Shown here piece by piece: positions 8 to 61,444 of a DNA stretch of 64,000 bases (its first letter is position 1; each line of letters starts with the position of its first letter). The DNA is taken from the sequence record PZ171033.1. One strand, given 5' to 3'. This DNA comes from a phage. The notes beneath the pieces are model-generated. The model saw only the letters and a program-made list of their open reading frames with translations. It had not been told where the DNA came from and made no database searches. Position numbers and translations under genes: made by a program.

Positions 8-1897
8 ATGATTAAAACCTACCTGCTGCCTAATGACCTAAGCATGGAAGACTTCATCTTCATTGAACTTCATTCTGCCCCCGGCAAGAAGAAGACTCCT
101 GCAAGGGAAATTAAGGAGTTCATACAGCAGGAACTGCAACAGGTACTGGATGATGCAGAAACTCAATACATTATCTGTACTGATTCTGATTACTTCAAAA
201 TACTGACTAAAGAAGCTAAAGCAGAGGCTAACCTCGGCTATGTTTGCGATTCAGTATGGGGTAAGCAGAAGGTTATCTATGCACCTAGCTACAGGCAAGT
301 ATTTTATGACCCACCTGTAGTGAAATCCAAGATTGCTCAGGGTATGGATGCATTACTTAACCACATACGTGGACAGTATGCTGAACCAGGTCATGGAATC
401 ATTGAATTTGAAGCCTATCCAGATACACCAGAGAAGATTAAAGCCTGGCTAGACCAGTTGCTTGAGATGAATAAGCCACTGGCTATAGACATCGAAGCAT
501 TCGGTTTAAAGCACTATAACGCCGGTATAGGGACAATTACATTCTGTTGGAGTAAGACACAAGGCATAGCCTTTAATGTGGACTATGAGCCAATTAAGGG
601 GGCTACTGAAGCTCCCTATGGGCGTATTAACAGGAACGATGTTGTTCGTAACCTGTTACGTGAGTTCTTCATTAAGTACACTCAACGGCAGATGTATCAC
701 AACATTAGCTATGACGTGTACATACTTATCTATCAGTTATTCATGGATAACCTGATTGATACGGAAGGCTTGCTGCATGGCATGGAAATCATGCTACGTA
801 ATTGGGACTGTACTAAGTTAATCACCTACCTGGCTACTAACAGTTGTGCTGGTAATCACCTTAGTCTGAAAGAACAGGCTCAGGAATATGCTGGTAACTA
901 TGCTCAGGATGACATTAAAGACATTCGTCTTATTCCTAATGAGCAACTGTTACGCTACAACCTCATTGATGGTTTGTGTACGTGGTACACCTACGAGAAG
1001 CACTGGGATACTCTCATTGCTGATGACCAACTGGATGTTTACAACAACATCTTTAAACCAGCCTGTGAAGACATTATTCAGATGCAGTTAACCGGTATGC
1101 CCATGAATATGGAAACCGTTAACCAAGTAGCTGAGGAGATGGAAACTGACAGGAACCAGGCTCTGAAAACTATTCGTGAGTCTAAGCTCATGAAGAACTT
1201 CACCCTGATGCTTCGTCAGGAATGGGTAGACGATAAGAATGCTAAGCTTAAGAAGAAGCAAGTAACATTGGCTGATTGTGACATCGAGTTTAATCCTAAC
1301 TCCGGTCCACAATTGCAGAAGTTGTTATTTGACTATATTGGCTTACCGGTTCTTGGTCTTACTAAGAGCAAGCAACCTGCTACTGACGGTGACACTATTA
1401 AAGCACTGCGTACACATACGCAGAGTGAAGATGTTAAGGAACTGCTCAATGCACTTATCGACTATAAACTCGTGGATAAGATTATCACTAGTTTTATACC
1501 AGCTTTCAGGAATGCCCAACCAGGGCCGGATGGCTGGCACTACCTATTCGGCAACCTCAATCTGGGAGGCACAGTCTCCGGTAGGCTATCGGCTTCAGAG
1601 CCAAATCTACAAACAATTCCATCCGGTTCTAAATATGCCAAGAAGATTAAGAAATGCTTCGAAGCTCCTCCTGGCTGGATATTTTGCGGTTTGGACTTCG
1701 CCTCGCTGGAAGACAGAATCTCTGCACTAACTACTAAAGACCCTCAGAAGCTTAAGGTGTACATGGGTGTGACTGTTTATACAGTTACTATAGAAGGAGT
1801 TGACCATCATATCCGAGATGATGATACAATCGTTTATGATGGTAAAACTTATACCGGTGAGGAGTTCTATGACGCTTTTACCTGTGGCCTTCTATGA
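8..1897 (+). CDS. DNA polymerase, family A, N-terminal part (3'-5' exonuclease plus polymerase motif A); frame runs into an HNH insertion and stops
   Basis: GGAGGA RBS at 1-6 then ATG at 8; exo motif AIDIEAFGL; motif A LDFASLEDRI; the last ~40 aa after KVYMG look non-polymerase. Confidence 0.85.
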   Translation: MIKTYLLPNDLSMEDFIFIELHSAPGKKKTPAREIKEFIQQELQQVLDDAETQYIICTDSDYFKILTKEAKAEANLGYVCDSVWGKQKVIYAPSYRQVFYDPPVVKSKIAQGMDALLNHIRGQYAEPGHGIIEFEAYPDTPEKIKAWLDQLLEMNKPLAIDIEAFGLKHYNAGIGTITFCWSKTQGIAFNVDYEPIKGATEAPYGRINRNDVVRNLLREFFIKYTQRQMYHNISYDVYILIYQLFMDNLIDTEGLLHGMEIMLRNWDCTKLITYLATNSCAGNHLSLKEQAQEYAGNYAQDDIKDIRLIPNEQLLRYNLIDGLCTWYTYEKHWDTLIADDQLDVYNNIFKPACEDIIQMQLTGMPMNMETVNQVAEEMETDRNQALKTIRESKLMKNFTLMLRQEWVDDKNAKLKKKQVTLADCDIEFNPNSGPQLQKLLFDYIGLPVLGLTKSKQPATDGDTIKALRTHTQSEDVKELLNALIDYKLVDKIITSFIPAFRNAQPGPDGWHYLFGNLNLGGTVSGRLSASEPNLQTIPSGSKYAKKIKKCFEAPPGWIFCGLDFASLEDRISALTTKDPQKLKVYMGVTVYTVTIEGVDHHIRDDDTIVYDGKTYTGEEFYDAFTCGLL

Positions 1898-2414
1898 ACA
1901 ACGGTATAAGATTTCCGATGAAGGTTTCATCTTAAATCTTGCAAACAATCAACCCCTAAAACCGACTCTCAATCCTAACGGATACCTTAAGGTTGGGTTA
2001 GCTAATGGGGATGGTACACATCACCAAGAGCTACTTCATATTCTGGTAGCTAAACACTTCATCCCTAATCCTTATGGCTATGAACAGGTGAACCATAAAG
2101 ATGGTAATAAACTGCATTGTCATAAGGATAATCTGGAATGGTGCTCTGCTACTCAGAATGTTGAACATGCACTTAAAACAAGGCTACGTCCTGGTTACAT
2201 GTCTGCTGACGATAAAGAAAAGTATCTCTTTGAGGTGCTGGCAGGTAAGCAAGTTAAAGACATTGCTTTTGAAATAGGTAGACGTTCTGAAACTTTGCAT
2301 AAGATGCTCAGAACTACTGCTGACCGACTTGGTGTTCGAAATGAGTGGGATGATGTTATGAGGAGAAATAGAAAAGATGTTGCTTTACGACAGCTTGCCA
2401 AAATCAACTCATGA
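1869..2414 (+). CDS. HNH homing endonuclease inserted in the DNA polymerase gene
   Basis: Motifs NGYLKVGL...HQELLH...VNHKDGNKLHCHKDNLEWCSATQN; frame differs from both polymerase segments; start codon uncertain (first in-frame ATG after pol motif A is 1869). Confidence 0.8.
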   Translation: MTLLPVAFYEQRYKISDEGFILNLANNQPLKPTLNPNGYLKVGLANGDGTHHQELLHILVAKHFIPNPYGYEQVNHKDGNKLHCHKDNLEWCSATQNVEHALKTRLRPGYMSADDKEKYLFEVLAGKQVKDIAFEIGRRSETLHKMLRTTADRLGVRNEWDDVMRRNRKDVALRQLAKINS

Positions 2415-3207
2415 CTTCACTGGCAAGAAAATTGACAACGTAGTCAAAGCCGGGAGTTCATCAGGTTATGATGGGCACAGTCTTCGTGCATATGCTTACT
2501 TCGGTGAGCAGATGCCAGACATAGAAGACACGGTAGAATCCATTAACTCCATTCAGCATAAGTACAAATCATTACGTAGTGACTCGAAGGCTCCAACCTT
2601 CTTGCTTACCTATGGTGGTACGTATATGGGCTTAATGAAAAACTGTGGCTTCTCTGAAGAGAAGGCTAAAACTACAGAGAAGCGTTATCACGACCTCTAT
2701 GTAGTTAGTGACAGGTGGGTTCAGGCTAAGCTAGACGAAGCTGCCAAAACTGGTTATGTTACTGCCGCATTCGGTTTGAGAGTGCGTACTCCTTTACTGG
2801 CTCAGGTTTTACGTGGGACATGCAAGACTCCGTATGAAGCAGAAGCAGAAGGCAGAACTGCTGGTAATGCTTTAGGACAAAGCTGGTGTCTACTGAATAA
2901 CCGTGCTGGTTCAGAATTTATGCGTAAAGTCAGAGCCAGTGAGTTCAGGTTAGATATTCGTCCTAGTATTCACATTCATGATGCTCAGTACTTCATGATT
3001 CGTGACAACATGGATACCTTACAGTTTACGAACAAGCACTTGGTTGAAGCCGTTAACTGGCAAGATCATCCTGATATTGCCCATCCAGAAGTTGGTTTGG
3101 GTGGGGAACTATCCTTGTTCTACCCAACGTGGGCTAATGAGATTGAAATTCCAAATCACGCTACCCCAGAAGAAGTTCATCAAATAATTCAAAAGGCATT
3201 CGCATGA
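2377..3207 (+). CDS. DNA polymerase, family A, C-terminal part (motifs B and C)
   Basis: YDGHSLRA (DIH-like), motif B RSDSKAPTFLLTYGG, motif C IHIHDAQYF; ATG 2377 with AGGAG 11 nt upstream, but may instead be a spliced exon beginning near 2466. Confidence 0.8.
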   Translation: MLLYDSLPKSTHDFTGKKIDNVVKAGSSSGYDGHSLRAYAYFGEQMPDIEDTVESINSIQHKYKSLRSDSKAPTFLLTYGGTYMGLMKNCGFSEEKAKTTEKRYHDLYVVSDRWVQAKLDEAAKTGYVTAAFGLRVRTPLLAQVLRGTCKTPYEAEAEGRTAGNALGQSWCLLNNRAGSEFMRKVRASEFRLDIRPSIHIHDAQYFMIRDNMDTLQFTNKHLVEAVNWQDHPDIAHPEVGLGGELSLFYPTWANEIEIPNHATPEEVHQIIQKAFA

Positions 3208-11732: not shown

Positions 11733-11808
11733 TACCCGGTAGGCTTAGTGGTAAAGCCCCACTAGTAAACCAACTAGGACGCAGGTTCGAATCCTGTCCG
11801 GGTAGCCA
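11733..11808 (+). tRNA. tRNA-like gene with encoded CCA
   Basis: Acceptor TACCCGG/CCGGGTA, U8A9, D-arm GGCT-TAGTGGTAA-AGCC, T-arm GCAGG-TTCGAAT-CCTGT, G then CCA; anticodon arm atypical (6-nt loop by eye). Confidence 0.5.
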
Positions 11809-11813
11809 TTTAT

Positions 11814-11898
11814 GCCCACTTAGCTCAGTGGTAGAGCGCAGGAAAGCTTCGAGAGAACAAGGTGTCTGTGGTCACTGGTTCAAATCCAGTAGTGGGTA
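11814..11898 (+). tRNA. tRNA-like gene, long-arm (class II-like) length
   Basis: Canonical D-arm GCTCAGTGGTAGAGC, T-arm ACTGG-TTCAAAT-CCAGT, acceptor GCCCACT/AGTGGGT; 36-nt anticodon/variable region does not fold canonically by eye. Confidence 0.45.
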
Positions 11899-12919: not shown

Positions 12920-13411
12920 ATGTCAGAAGAAATTAAAGTCCATTTCACCAACTACATTGGAACCAAGTGTGTAAATGGATTCCGGATGAACAAGGAAACA
13001 TATTGCAAACTCCGTGGCTGGGATGTGCCTGCTAATGAAGACCCATTAGAAGTAGGTTACTTAGTAGAATACCCAGATTCTAAACCTAACCATGAACAAT
13101 TCCGTGGTTATATTAGCTGGTCACCAAGGGCTGCATTTGAAGCTGCATATTGTGATGTAGATAAGGGTTGTACTTTTGGTCACGCAGTAGAACTTATAAA
13201 ACTGGGTCACAGACTGACCCGTAAAGGCTGGAACGGTAAGGGAATGTATATTACCCTAGTATCTGGTGAAAATTGGGCTATGGATAAACATGAGAATACC
13301 GTATGTGAGAAACGGGATTGGTTGGGCATCAAAACTGTTGATGACCAGTTTATGCCTTGGGTTCCTTCCCAATCGGATGTATTAGCTGAAGATTGGGTAT
13401 TAGCTCAGTAA
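12920..13411 (+). CDS. DUF2829-like protein (possible Tad2-type anti-defence sponge) with N-terminal extension
   Basis: C-terminal HAVELIKLGHRLTRKGWNGKGMY...WVPSQSDVLAEDWVL resembles the DUF2829 signature; GAGG RBS; terminator follows. Confidence 0.4.
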   Translation: MSEEIKVHFTNYIGTKCVNGFRMNKETYCKLRGWDVPANEDPLEVGYLVEYPDSKPNHEQFRGYISWSPRAAFEAAYCDVDKGCTFGHAVELIKLGHRLTRKGWNGKGMYITLVSGENWAMDKHENTVCEKRDWLGIKTVDDQFMPWVPSQSDVLAEDWVLAQ

Positions 13412-53855: not shown

Positions 53856-54437
53856 ATGAAGACATGTTCAGTATGTAAGAAGAACTTGCCTCTGGACATG
53901 TTCAATAAACAGTCCACTGGCAAACAGGGTGTTAGGGCAGACTGTAAAGACTGCCTTAAACGCTTTATCCGTTCAAAACACGGAGTCATTAATCAGATGT
54001 ACTCCGGTTGTATCAGTAGAACCAAGAAGAAGGGATTTACTTCCGTATCCTTCACTAGGGAGGAGCTAGAGAAATGGGTATATTCATGCAAAGAATTTCA
54101 CACATTGTATGACAAGTGGGTATTGGAAGATTATCCAACTGCCTTGAAACCTAGCTTAGACAGACTGGATGATTACAAAGGTTATTCCCTGGATAACATT
54201 CGTATTGTTACAGCCAATACCAACGTAAAGAGGTACTACTCTGATGCAATCAACGGCATCAATACTAAATCAGCTAAGCCCGTTGAGCAGTACTCACTAG
54301 ATGGTGAATACATTAGGACATTCCATTCACTTAGTGCTGCTGCACGAAGTGTTAATGGTATACCTTCTAATATTAATCAAGTAATTAATGGTACGTATGC
54401 GCAAGCATATGGCTATAAGTGGAAACTAGGAGCCTAA
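53856..54437 (+). CDS. homing-endonuclease-like protein (zinc finger + HNH_3-like domain + NUMOD1-type DNA-binding tail)
   Basis: CxxC...CxxC N-terminus; SLDRLDDYKGYSLDNIRIVTANTN; C-terminal ...INGTYAQAYGYKWK. Confidence 0.6.
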   Translation: MKTCSVCKKNLPLDMFNKQSTGKQGVRADCKDCLKRFIRSKHGVINQMYSGCISRTKKKGFTSVSFTREELEKWVYSCKEFHTLYDKWVLEDYPTALKPSLDRLDDYKGYSLDNIRIVTANTNVKRYYSDAINGINTKSAKPVEQYSLDGEYIRTFHSLSAAARSVNGIPSNINQVINGTYAQAYGYKWKLGA

Positions 54438-58164: not shown

Positions 58165-59046
58165 TAACTAACGGGGCTTCATGAGAGCAATCTCATGTCG
58201 AAAGTTACCTAAACAGGGAACCTCTTCTAAACTGGTTGGCTCAAGTGTATACTTGAGTTTTAATCAATTGGAGACAATCCTGTGCTAAATAATGAAATTT
58301 GGAAAGATGTGCCCGGCTTACCGTATGAAGTTTCCAACTTTGGCGTAGTACGCCGAAAGGAAGGAAAGTATAAATACAAAAACAGGACACATATAAAACC
58401 GTATCTTAATAACAAAGGATACTACTGCGTGAACCTGTACATGAATAGTAAAGTGTACAAATACCAAGTTCACCGTCTGGTAGGATTAGCCTTTGTACCA
58501 AACCCTAATAACTATCCTGTTATTAATCATATAGATGGAAACCCTCTTAATAACCACGAGAGTAACCTGGAATGGTGTACCCAGTCTCATAACATGAAAC
58601 ATGCTTGGGATACTGGACTGCAAACAAACAGGCACGCTAATGCTAGTAATAAAAATCGTGGAGGCTCCTCCAAATATGTAGGCGTATCCTGGAGTGAGCA
58701 AAGACAAAGATGGTGTGCCCATATAAGGGTTAACAAGAAATCTATTGGTTTGGGACGTTACAAAACAGAGGAAGAAGCTGCTAAAGCTTACGACTCCTAC
58801 GTAACTAATAACAATCTTACACAGATTGGGTACAGTACCAATTTCATTTAAACGCCAAACGACTATCGAAAACACACAGAAATGTGGAAGTGAGTAGAGT
58901 AGGGTGCAAGCCAATGGCACTCGAAACGGTAACAGCCCTAGCAATAGGGCTTTGATATAGTCTCCTCTGCATGGTGACATGCAGCAGTCAGTATTCACTG
59001 AGTGTACTGACGGCATTAGTAGTTGCGAACTAATGTGAAGATAATG
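58165..59046 (+). mobile_element. probable group I intron (882 nt) carrying an HNH-AP2 homing endonuclease ORF
   Basis: 5' exon ends in U, insertion ends in G; joining 58164 to 59047 restores Walker B LLFLDEFN in frame; 117 + 195 nt non-coding flanks around the endonuclease ORF. Confidence 0.55.
58282..58851 (+). CDS. HNH-AP2 homing endonuclease (intron-encoded)
   Basis: HNH motif NHIDGNPLNNHESNLEWCTQSHN; AP2 domain YVGVSWSEQRQRWCAHIRVNKKSIGLGRYKTEEEAAKAYD. Confidence 0.8.
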   Translation: MLNNEIWKDVPGLPYEVSNFGVVRRKEGKYKYKNRTHIKPYLNNKGYYCVNLYMNSKVYKYQVHRLVGLAFVPNPNNYPVINHIDGNPLNNHESNLEWCTQSHNMKHAWDTGLQTNRHANASNKNRGGSSKYVGVSWSEQRQRWCAHIRVNKKSIGLGRYKTEEEAAKAYDSYVTNNNLTQIGYSTNFI

Positions 59047-59785
59047 CGATGAGTTCAACTCAGCTAAGAAAGAAGTAGTAGCTGCTGCATACAAACTGAT
59101 TCTCGACCGTATGACTGGACAGAAAAAACTTCACCCTAATGTGATGATTATCTGTGCCGGTAACAAAGCTACTGACCGTGCCATCGTTAACCCACTGGGT
59201 ACTGCAATGCAGTCTCGTGTTGTCCACTTTGAAATGGAACTTAACTTCGACATCTTTGTTGAAGACGTTATGATTCCGTACAAGTGGGATGAACGTCTGG
59301 TTGCATTCTTACATGCTAACCCAGGCTATCTGCATGACTTTGACCCAGCCCATAAGAACAAAACGTTCTGTTGCCCTCGTACTTGGGACTTTGTTAACAA
59401 AGACCTCAAGAACCTCCCGGAAGGTGCTCTGCCTGACGAGGATTCCCTATACTACAGTGGTTTTGTTACACCAGGTAAGGCCGTAGAGTTTGTTCAGTTC
59501 ACTCAGGTATACAATCGTATGATTACGATTGAGAAGGTAGTCAAAGACCCCATGGGCTGTGCACTGCCGGAAGATACCAACCTATGCTGGGCTACCGTTA
59601 ACCATCTGGCTAACAAAACTACTGAAGAGAACTTCGCTGATGTTCTCCAGTACATTGAACGCTTTAAAACGTTCACCCATAAGATTCTGTACTTCCGTAC
59701 AGTGGGCAAAGCATTACCAGAAATTCAGGCTACCCCTGAATGGCGTAAGGCTGCTGCCAATATCTCTCGTTACATTCACGGATAA
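59047..59785 (+). CDS. MoxR-type AAA+ ATPase, exon 2
   Basis: In-frame DEFNSA... with no start codon upstream of track ATG 59111; sensor-1-like VMIICAGN. Confidence 0.6.
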
Positions 59786-59792
59786 TCACATC

Positions 59793-60269
59793 ATGAACTG
59801 GAATGACTTGTTCACATACAGCAATGGTGCTCTTTACTGGAAAGTATCTAGAGGCCGTGCACTAGCTGGGGCTGTTGCCGGGAGTGTGGACAATAGTGGA
59901 TACGTTAGAGTCAAATGCTTCAAAAAGATGTACTTGGTTCACCGTATAATCTATGAAATGGAAATCGGCCCAATCCCTGATGGCTACCAGGTAGACCATA
60001 TTGACCATAACAGGTTAAATAACTACCCAAGTAACTTCCGTTTAGTCACCAATTTAGATAACTGCCGTAACCAAAAGAAAAGGATAACCAATTCTTCTGG
60101 TATTACAGGAGTCTATTGGCACTCCAGAGATGAAATATGGGCTGCTTCCATAAATGATAATGGTAAGCAAATTTATTTAGGAAAATTCCCTAGTAAAGAA
60201 GAAGCTGCTAAAGCCAGGAAAGAGGCTGAAAAGCTTATTGGTTACCATAAAAATCATGGAGCACCTTAA
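59793..60269 (+). CDS. HNH-AP2 homing endonuclease (free-standing)
   Basis: HNH motif YQVDHIDHNRLNNYPSNFRLVTNLDN; AP2 ITGVYWHSRDEIWAASINDNGKQIYLGKFPSKEEAAKA; ATG 59793 chosen inside track ORF 59559. Confidence 0.75.
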   Translation: MNWNDLFTYSNGALYWKVSRGRALAGAVAGSVDNSGYVRVKCFKKMYLVHRIIYEMEIGPIPDGYQVDHIDHNRLNNYPSNFRLVTNLDNCRNQKKRITNSSGITGVYWHSRDEIWAASINDNGKQIYLGKFPSKEEAAKARKEAEKLIGYHKNHGAP

Positions 60270-61444
60270 TGAATAACATACCTACACATACCCTTACTGA
60301 TGAACAGTTAATGAGGGAGTACGACAGGATCCAAGCTAACGCCTTTCTAGGCAAGTCTGCTGCCTTTTTTGGTTCATTGCTGTGTAGTCTTAAGTTCTCA
60401 TGGAAACGCGAGGACTGTCCCACTGCATGTACAGATGGGATAGAACTCCATTTCAATCCAGACTTCTTTATCTGGATGTGTCCTGATGCAAGAGAAACAG
60501 TACTAATGCACGAACTCTGGCATGTGGCATATCTGCATGGAATCCGTTGTGGAAGCCGTGACCCAGAAATCTGGAACCAGGCATGTGACCACTTCATTAA
60601 CCTTCAGTTAGAGGAAGATGGTTACAAGTTCACTGGTATCGACAAAGGCATTTGCAAAGACCCTCAATATAAAGGATGGGTCGAAGAAGACATCTACGAT
60701 GACCTGATGAAGAACCCTCAGAAAAGGCAGAAGCCGTCAGGGGGTGCTGGAGCAGGTCTTGCTGGCGACATGAAAGCTCCCTCTTCGGGGCAGTCCCAGG
60801 GTGCTGTTGTCAACAACGTAGTACGTGCAATGCAAAGTCAGAAGATGGCTGGTGGAACAATGCCCGGTAAGGGTGCTGGTCGTATGGAAGAGGTTATTAC
60901 CCAATTCCTTAAGCCAGTGGTTCCATGGCAGGAAGTCCTCATGAACTTCTTTACCGACATTGATGACACTCACTATACGTGGGCCAGACCTAACCGTCGT
61001 TACACTGACATCTATCTACCTTCACTGGAAGATGATGAAGGGCGTCTACGACACTTAGCTTACTTTGAGGATGTATCAGGTTCTATTAGTAGTGCTGACT
61101 CTCTGCGTTTTAACTCAGAGGTTGCCTACGTTAAGAGCCAGTTCAACCCTAAAAAGATGTCCTTAATTACCTTCGACGATATTATCCAAGAAGAGATGGA
61201 CATCACTGAAGAAGATACTTTTGAAGAGATTAGGATTACAGGTCGTGGTGGTACAAACCTTGAACCAGTACGAGAATGGATTATTAAGAATAAGCCAACC
61301 GCTGCAATCATATTCTCCGATATGTATGTTCGCCCAATGGAAGAATTGCCATTTGATATACCTATCATTTGGTGTGTTCTGAATAATCCTAATGCTACCG
61401 TACCTTTTGGGGAGGTAGTTCATATCCCTAAAGGAATGAAATAA
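60269..61444 (+). CDS. VWA-domain protein with HExxH metallopeptidase-like motif (MoxR partner)
   Basis: LMHELWHVAYLH; C-terminal VWA-like region; adjacent to AAA+ ATPase. Confidence 0.55.
   Translation: MNNIPTHTLTDEQLMREYDRIQANAFLGKSAAFFGSLLCSLKFSWKREDCPTACTDGIELHFNPDFFIWMCPDARETVLMHELWHVAYLHGIRCGSRDPEIWNQACDHFINLQLEEDGYKFTGIDKGICKDPQYKGWVEEDIYDDLMKNPQKRQKPSGGAGAGLAGDMKAPSSGQSQGAVVNNVVRAMQSQKMAGGTMPGKGAGRMEEVITQFLKPVVPWQEVLMNFFTDIDDTHYTWARPNRRYTDIYLPSLEDDEGRLRHLAYFEDVSGSISSADSLRFNSEVAYVKSQFNPKKMSLITFDDIIQEEMDITEEDTFEEIRITGRGGTNLEPVREWIIKNKPTAAIIFSDMYVRPMEELPFDIPIIWCVLNNPNATVPFGEVVHIPKGMK

Follow-up and report, generated by a model that had tools for sequence, protein, structure and literature searches.

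Homing by genes that sit between other genes rather than inside introns has been described for the T4 Seg and Mob enzymes, where a nuclease encoded by an intergenic gene cleaves the allele that is without this gene and the markers flanking it are co-converted (PMC2988022; PMC2790892). These free-standing T4 enzymes often cut hundreds of bp away from their own gene (PMC2988022). A further recognized family of homing endonucleases, the HNH-AP2 proteins, has an N-terminal HNH and a C-terminal AP2 domain and is found in phages, cyanobacteria, and protists, and in the vibriophage ICP1 the nuclease genes mark boundaries of genetic exchange (PMC10448857). For the G7C-like phages, genes related to homing endonucleases have been counted among the main variable loci (preprint 10.1101/542787).

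Here, we analyzed a stretch of phage DNA of 64,000 nucleotides (record PZ171033.1; hereafter the window), which belongs to Gamaleyavirus, that is, the G7C-like, N4-like coliphages of the Schitoviridae. A 158-aa ORF on the + strand (59793-60269), which opens with an ATG at 59793 and closes with a TAA at 60267-60269, is very probably a free-standing gene for a homing endonuclease of the HNH_3 plus AP2 type and is lodged in the gp24/gp25 junction. It is the positional ortholog of G7C gp24.1 (ORF24.1), which the authors of that genome labelled 'putative HNH homing endonuclease', and a Mimir124 gene matches it with 100% identity over 484 nt. The same-site orthologs in G7C, the UE phages, and Mimir124 are all labelled HNH homing endonuclease. 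Moreover, the genes of G7C, Mimir124, UE-S5a/S5b/M3/M6, and PD38/Bp4 have in common with the window gene not only the gp24-gp25 site but also the length (158-159 aa), the HNH_3 and AP2 domains, and a stop codon that overlaps the gp25 start. Given the identical Mimir124 gene and the G7C annotation, the feature is already known as an annotated gene. The proposal made by a first-pass annotation from sequence, a free-standing HNH-AP2 gene between an AAA+ ATPase and a VWA gene, was borne out by the ORF and its domains, and the gene is real, correctly identified, and already annotated; by itself it matters little, since the identical copy has been deposited and the G7C ortholog described. What the analysis yields as a by-product is a clean, testable natural case of intronless homing in N4-like phages, with ~30 bp at the gp25 start as a candidate target, two co-conversion tracts that could be mapped, and three allele classes of long standing, and this case could help explain the local mosaicism of Gamaleyavirus genomes. 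It is also relevant to the engineering and cocktail design of these coliphages, which are candidates for therapy, as a carrier would convert the relatives with which it co-infects. The literature that we searched contained no biochemical or genetic test of the window enzyme or of G7C gp24.1.

The neighbors of the gene are homologs of N4 gp24 (AAA+ ATPase) and gp25 (DUF2201 metallopeptidase/VWA), and a dCTP deaminase gene comes next. Upstream lies the 3′ exon of the ATPase gene, encoding its C-terminal part (59048-59785, +), as delimited by alignment to the intact 1053-nt ATPase gene of Mimir124. Downstream lies the VWA-like, putative metallopeptidase gene (60269-61444, +), the probable target gene, which matched the Pfam models DUF2201_N (2e-55) and DUF2201 (1e-34). 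The ATPase stop codon is the TAA at 59783-59785, such that the gap to the endonuclease ATG, which the first-pass annotation had given as 8 nt, measures 7 nt (59786-59792, +) and consists of the spacer TCACATC, as seen in a junction alignment of 13 genomes. At the other end, the overlap of the endonuclease stop with the VWA start had been read correctly and involves a single base (TAATG, with the shared A at 60269). This stop/start overlap was conserved across alleles. Inside the endonuclease ORF, close to its 3′ end and 7 nt upstream of the VWA ATG, we also read a GGAG motif (60258-60261, +) that resembles a Shine-Dalgarno sequence and would serve the VWA gene; it was kept in all occupied genomes except G7C, which has GGGG. 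Together, GGAG and the TAATG overlap would keep translation coupled from the ATPase through the endonuclease and gp25 to the dCTP deaminase.

The endonuclease ORF starts where gp25 formerly did, 3-7 nt past the ATPase stop, and both ORFs open with ATGAAC or ATGAAT after the same spacer position. An interpretation of the common ATGAAC as a target-site duplication or a start-codon capture was dropped: the N-terminus MNW(N/H)D is conserved in members of the family from unrelated phages (JeanPiccard, HdK1), so that the 6-nt match may be due to chance or microhomology. The insertion boundary is ambiguous by these 6 nt. The genes on both sides are complete and the endonuclease gene is not embedded in a self-splicing intron, with an Rfam search returning no ribozyme match that overlapped 59786-60269, even at E<=5.

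The encoded protein matched the HNH_3 nuclease domain (PF13392) at aa 47-90 (59931-60062, +), with E=9e-19 and 67.3 bits against a cutoff of 24.8, and the AP2 DNA-binding domain (PF00847) at aa 102-141 (60096-60215, +), with E=9.3e-9 and 35.9 bits, a score barely over its cutoff of 33.3. The AP2 assignment was backed by weak PDB matches to plant WRI1 and to apicomplexan AP2 domains (AP2IX-6), and by the occurrence of this domain in the enzyme of the ATPase insertion. The entire 158-aa protein matched PHROG 99 ('HNH endonuclease') at E=2e-63, and these domain and PHROG scores are far beyond chance. The best match among solved structures was I-HmuI (PDB 1u3e; E=4.2e-5), an enzyme encoded in the DNA polymerase intron of Bacillus phage SPO1, in an alignment of low similarity that covers aa 13-99 only and takes in a common N-terminal region. 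Within HNH_3, D68-H69 (59994-59999), N77/N81, and N90 (60060-60062) align to I-HmuI D74-H75, N83/N87, and N96, which we take to be, respectively, the general-base His preceded by an Asp, the structural Asn, and the metal-ligand Asn. H69, N81, and N90 were invariant in a family alignment of eight sequences. The HNH catalytic residues, on the absence of which the first-pass annotation had said its reading would fall, are thus present, and by its sequence the protein belongs to the HNH_3 His-Me finger nucleases, here combined with an AP2 domain.

The comparison with I-HmuI has its limits, in that I-HmuI is intron-encoded and its C-terminus is a helix-turn-helix region, whereas the window gene is free-standing and its product carries AP2. 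I-HmuI is also a strand-specific nicking enzyme, and nicking is therefore a plausible chemistry for the window enzyme. The free-standing enzymes of T4 differ in other ways, Seg being GIY-YIG and Mob being HNH without AP2, unlike the HNH plus AP2 enzyme of the window. The IPA-HNH genes of ICP1 share the HNH-AP2 architecture and the position at an exchange boundary with the window gene; however, their products are too divergent for the Pfam HNH_3 model, which the window protein matches at 9e-19.

Presence or absence across related phages, which had been suggested as a check on the gene, was found to be polymorphic. An empty-site query, a chimera of the last 300 nt of the ATPase gene and the first 300 nt of gp25, matched 59 records, and in 12 of these, from 10 phages (Mimir124, G7C, Moonfish, UE-S5a/S5b/M3/M6, Bp4, PD38, and Uz-1), the site was occupied, always at the same junction, with the two query halves ~450-485 nt apart. 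The halves were contiguous in the other 47 of 59 records (span 603-607 nt), in which the ATPase stop is followed by a spacer of 4-7 nt and the VWA start, such that the ORF alone makes up the insert. In empty genomes the junction reads ...CACGGATAA-TCACAAC-ATGAACCAGATACCT..., the spacer TCACAAC standing before the VWA start, and occupied genomes read ...CACGGATAA-TCACATC-ATGAACTGGAAT...(gene)...TTA-ATGAATAACATACCT... at the same place. Among the 59 records, only the window combines the endonuclease gene with an insertion at the Walker B motif of the ATPase. A scan of IMG/VR with the protein recovered G7C as the only match and no further genomes. Outside Gamaleyavirus, the closest relatives (~50% aa identity) were free-standing genes of Nonagvirus, Drexlerviridae, and Klebsiella and Salmonella siphophages.

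We then asked how the gene and its surroundings compare between carriers. The window and Mimir124 share a mismatch-free tract of 632 nt (59705-60336, +; pairwise alignment), which runs from the last 81 nt of the ATPase gene through the spacer and the endonuclease gene to gp25 nt 68, and lies in a background that is 5-10% diverged, with 59 mismatches in 59119-59704 and 35 in 60337-60994. For the 156 tract bases outside of the element, 8-9 differences would be expected at a background of ~5-6%, giving P about 1e-4 by our own Poisson estimate. A second, independent case came from Uz-1 and Bp4, which are ~95% identical over 1685 nt and have 523 nt without a mismatch that span the gene and end at gp25 nt 35. 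The 632-nt tract is probably a co-conversion tract that stems from recent homing or recombination, and the evidence for a continuing mobility of the gene, read from sequence comparison, appears good but indirect. G7C-like phages recombine often (10.1101/542787), and for this reason an identity tract alone is no proof of transfer driven by an endonuclease. The intact gene could instead be a passive passenger that spreads only by general homologous recombination, its nuclease initiating none of the events, as might be supposed from a core genome that is highly mosaic through recombination among close relatives (10.1101/542787) and from mosaic breakpoints elsewhere in the region, for example the haplotype at 59407-59484 that is shared only with Bas96. 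We consider this quite unlikely, given that two independent mismatch-free tracts are centered exactly on the gene, that the gene is in tight linkage with the recoded 5′ end of gp25 (see below) whereas the 3′ end of the ATPase gene, just as near, is undifferentiated, and that purifying selection and intact catalytic residues are hard to explain for a useless gene.

Two local features of this alignment were recorded. Just past the right end of the 632-nt tract, 12 mismatches fall within 28 nt (60337-60364), where the window has SP5M-type sequence, and this marks a sharp recombination breakpoint at gp25 nt 68. Separately, the 3′ part of the ATPase gene differs at ~25 positions within 59407-59484 from Mimir124, NAN33P5, and U1G. 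A link between this stretch and an endonuclease target was rejected, as the haplotype is simply shared with Bas96, the only one of the loci examined to have it in common, and it has the appearance of a local mosaic produced by recombination, without relation to the endonuclease gene.

The first 68 nt of the VWA gene in the window (60269-60336, +) form a recoded tract that is linked to the endonuclease gene and that we regard as a putative target and self-immunity tract, based on the comparison with SP5M and on the divergence between carriers and non-carriers. Relative to SP5M, which has the empty site, the window has 20 substitutions in 23 codons, with synonymous changes in 11 codons, among them the two-step changes CTC>TTA and, at two codons, CGT>AGG, and with three nonsynonymous codons (Q3N, Q6T, S10T), which leave room for selection at the protein level. 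Mean divergence over gp25 nt 1-50 was 31.6% between carriers and non-carriers, compared with 3.3% within non-carriers and 12.9% within carriers, and every comparison gave ~10% from nt 69 onward. Over the last 300 nt of the ATPase gene, carriers and non-carriers had neither differentiation nor a fixed difference between them. Every carrier had a recoded start of gp25. In a haplotype search of the 59 records, the ancestral 68-mer was matched at >=85% identity by all 47 empty records, and the recoded 68-mer, at >=82%, was matched by carriers only. Even Moo19 and Jgk1, whose identity over the 600-nt flanks is only ~70%, did not differ in the ancestral nt 1-23. Two recombinants, the carrier Uz-1, recoded only through gp25 nt 34, and the empty Bas96, recoded-like only in gp25 nt 49-85, alone narrow the strictly linked core to ~nt 7-29, and the empty AN24P2 and PBM-3 share one or two 'derived' bases.

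This pattern is the one expected if the enzyme recognizes the conserved gp25 start and carriers are protected by their substitutions, and the recoded tract may represent the actual cleavage site. The comparative footprint, composed of flank identity tracts and a linked variant target, is what the locus has in common with T4 SegF, SegG, and MobE; those enzymes often cut far off, whereas the linked variant tract of the window gene starts right at the insertion point. Because free-standing T4 enzymes often cut hundreds of bp away, the target could also lie outside the recoded tract, and part of the tract could be sequence brought in by the original insertion, rather than selected immunity.

Divergence among the alleles was pronounced. 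The window allele had 74-75% nucleotide and 77-81% amino acid identity to those of G7C and UE-S5a, and 57% amino acid identity to that of PD38. Its pS against the G7C, UE, or PD38 alleles was ~0.76, a saturated value, and that of the flanking ATPase and gp25 genes was 0.2-0.3, which puts the age of the allele classes far above that of the phage backbones that carry them; such an age would fit an element with a horizontal history of its own. At the same time, pN between the window allele and those of G7C and UE was 0.12-0.15 (pN/pS ~0.16-0.19), pN against PD38 was 0.31 (pN/pS ~0.4), and dN/dS in the closer pair of G7C and UE was 0.095, low ratios that indicate a protein under purifying selection.

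That the gene is an inactive relic, its ORF open by chance or through the overlap with gp25 translation signals, has next to no likelihood in our view. Homing endonuclease genes do commonly decay after fixation, and Moonfish has a broken copy at the same site, with a frameshift in or a deletion of the AP2 region, a state that the life cycle of such genes would predict; yet the window gene has a full-length ORF with all catalytic residues present, comparisons of deeply diverged alleles give pN/pS well under 1, and the sequence is 100% identical to the Mimir124 copy within a tract of recent transfer. Frameshifts in the Bp4 copy were not counted as decay, since the ATPase and VWA genes of that record are fragmented too, which suggests sequencing errors, and PD38 has the intact version.

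Purifying selection is compatible with any function, and the gene might thus have been domesticated for a phage function, such as exclusion of competitors, degradation of host DNA, or repression of transcription through AP2, with its mobility secondary or lost. Its place within a translationally coupled early or middle operon would suit such a role, and AP2 domains act as sequence-specific transcriptional silencers in the phage CasPR anti-CRISPR repressors (bioRxiv 10.64898/2026.02.23.707548). The CasPRs, however, are CapR plus AP2 proteins without HNH (bioRxiv 10.64898/2026.02.23.707548), and the nuclease residues of the window protein are intact, unlike in a pure DNA binder. Furthermore, ~80% of close relatives are viable isolates without the gene, one copy (Moonfish) is decaying, and marker exclusion would be a by-product of homing and not an alternative to it. 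Domestication is, on this evidence, very improbable.

For the reading that we favor, that of a homing endonuclease gene, a scheme can be drawn by analogy with intronless homing in T-even phages. Upon co-infection with a relative that has no copy, the enzyme would bind DNA via AP2 and its I-HmuI-like N-terminal region (aa 13-46), and the His-Me finger would cut the empty allele, possibly by a single-strand nick as with I-HmuI, and most likely in the ~first 35 nt of gp25, within the conserved sequence ATGAACCAGATACCTCAGCACACACTTAG. Recombination repair off the carrier genome would then copy the gene together with ~35-80 nt of flank per side, and the carrier itself would be protected by the recoded 5′ end of its own gp25. 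The host phage would suffer little harm, as the element would take over the former gp25 translation start region and supply GGAG and the TAATG overlap, thereby re-coupling gp25 translation.

The alleles at the site fall into three classes (window/Mimir124, G7C/UE, and PD38/Bp4/Moonfish), each with its own variant of the gp25 5′ end. A bolder interpretation, which we find rather doubtful, is that these classes are rival endonucleases whose specificities have shifted, each able to cut the 'immune' haplotypes of the others, making the junction a long-lived arms-race locus. If so, alleles would replace one another at the gp24/gp25 junction, instead of going through a simple cycle of invasion, fixation, and decay, and the element, being coupled to gp25 translation, could be lost only with difficulty.

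Turning to the other endonucleases of the window, the first-pass count of four genes was correct (1800-2414, 53856-54437, 58282-58851, and 59793-60269), and a scan of ten further ORFs found no nuclease domain. The accompanying statement that this is an unusually high load does not hold: G7C, the type phage with manual annotation, alone has five genes annotated as putative homing endonucleases within its first 50 kb (gp2.1, 15.1, 24.1, 41.1, and 47.1), so that the load of the window is typical. We also observed that in many Gamaleyavirus records (RefSeq/PHANOTATE) the VWA/metallopeptidase gene gp25 wrongly bears the product name 'HNH endonuclease' (phrog 1314), for example in the relative records L001 (4484-5659) and L009 (1808-2983); counts taken from product names therefore overestimate endonucleases.

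The gene at 53856-54437, which had been described as an insertion in RNAPII, is free-standing, located between gp15 and an intact 405-aa gp16. It encodes an EndoVII-like protein (PHROG 1035) with NUMOD1, and its place and 582-nt length are those of G7C ORF15.1. The type of catalytic motif recalls the F-CphI family (PMC6083498).

The free-standing enzyme had further been called a paralog of an intron-encoded enzyme, namely that of the ATPase insertion. The two do share HNH_3 and AP2 domains (AP2 of the latter, 40.1 bits), but the term is a loose one, as they are only 36.7% identical over 120 aa, belong to different PHROGs (99 versus 59), and differ by an extra NUMOD4; they are distant family members rather than products of a recent duplication. 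The ATPase insertion itself (58166-59047, 882 nt) splits the gene inside Walker B, between LFL and DEF, and its removal restores the motif. Its ORF (58282-58851) encodes the NUMOD4-HNH_3-AP2 enzyme of PHROG 59, with NUMOD4 at the N-terminus. The last base is a T in the 5′ exon of the ATPase gene and a G in the insertion, and the Rfam model Intron_gpI matched 58797-58984 with E=0.009 and 22.2 bits, below the gathering score of 50. To call this enzyme intron-encoded is thus plausible from the sequence. Of the insertions of this kind in G7C-like phages, one is spliced and another stays unspliced (10.1101/542787). The ATPase insertion was also present in U1G and NAN33P5 and was absent from Mimir124, G7C, and PD38. 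NAN33P5 has a second ATPase insertion of ~864 nt (2032-2895 of its locus, corresponding to window ~59381), in which one stretch is 76% identical to window 58897-58988, the intron-like core. Counting this second insertion, the ATPase insertion of the window, and the free-standing gene, there are at least three sites of mobile elements in gp24 within 2 kb.

Elsewhere in the window, a family A DNA polymerase (8-3207) is split into two ORFs (8-1897 and 2377-3207) by the NUMOD4-HNH_3 ORF at 1800-2414, which overlaps both. The arrangement resembles the non-spliced g39 insertion of the G7C-like phage 10Gb, which gives a two-piece polymerase (10.1101/542787). Rfam searches of the window at gathering thresholds yielded nothing beyond two adjacent tRNA genes (11733-11898; 39 and 54 bits), the second of which has a long variable arm. 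Finally, the 163-aa product of the ORF at 12920-13411 contains a domain that resembles Tad2 (Thoeris anti-defence 2; Pfam E=2.7e-23).
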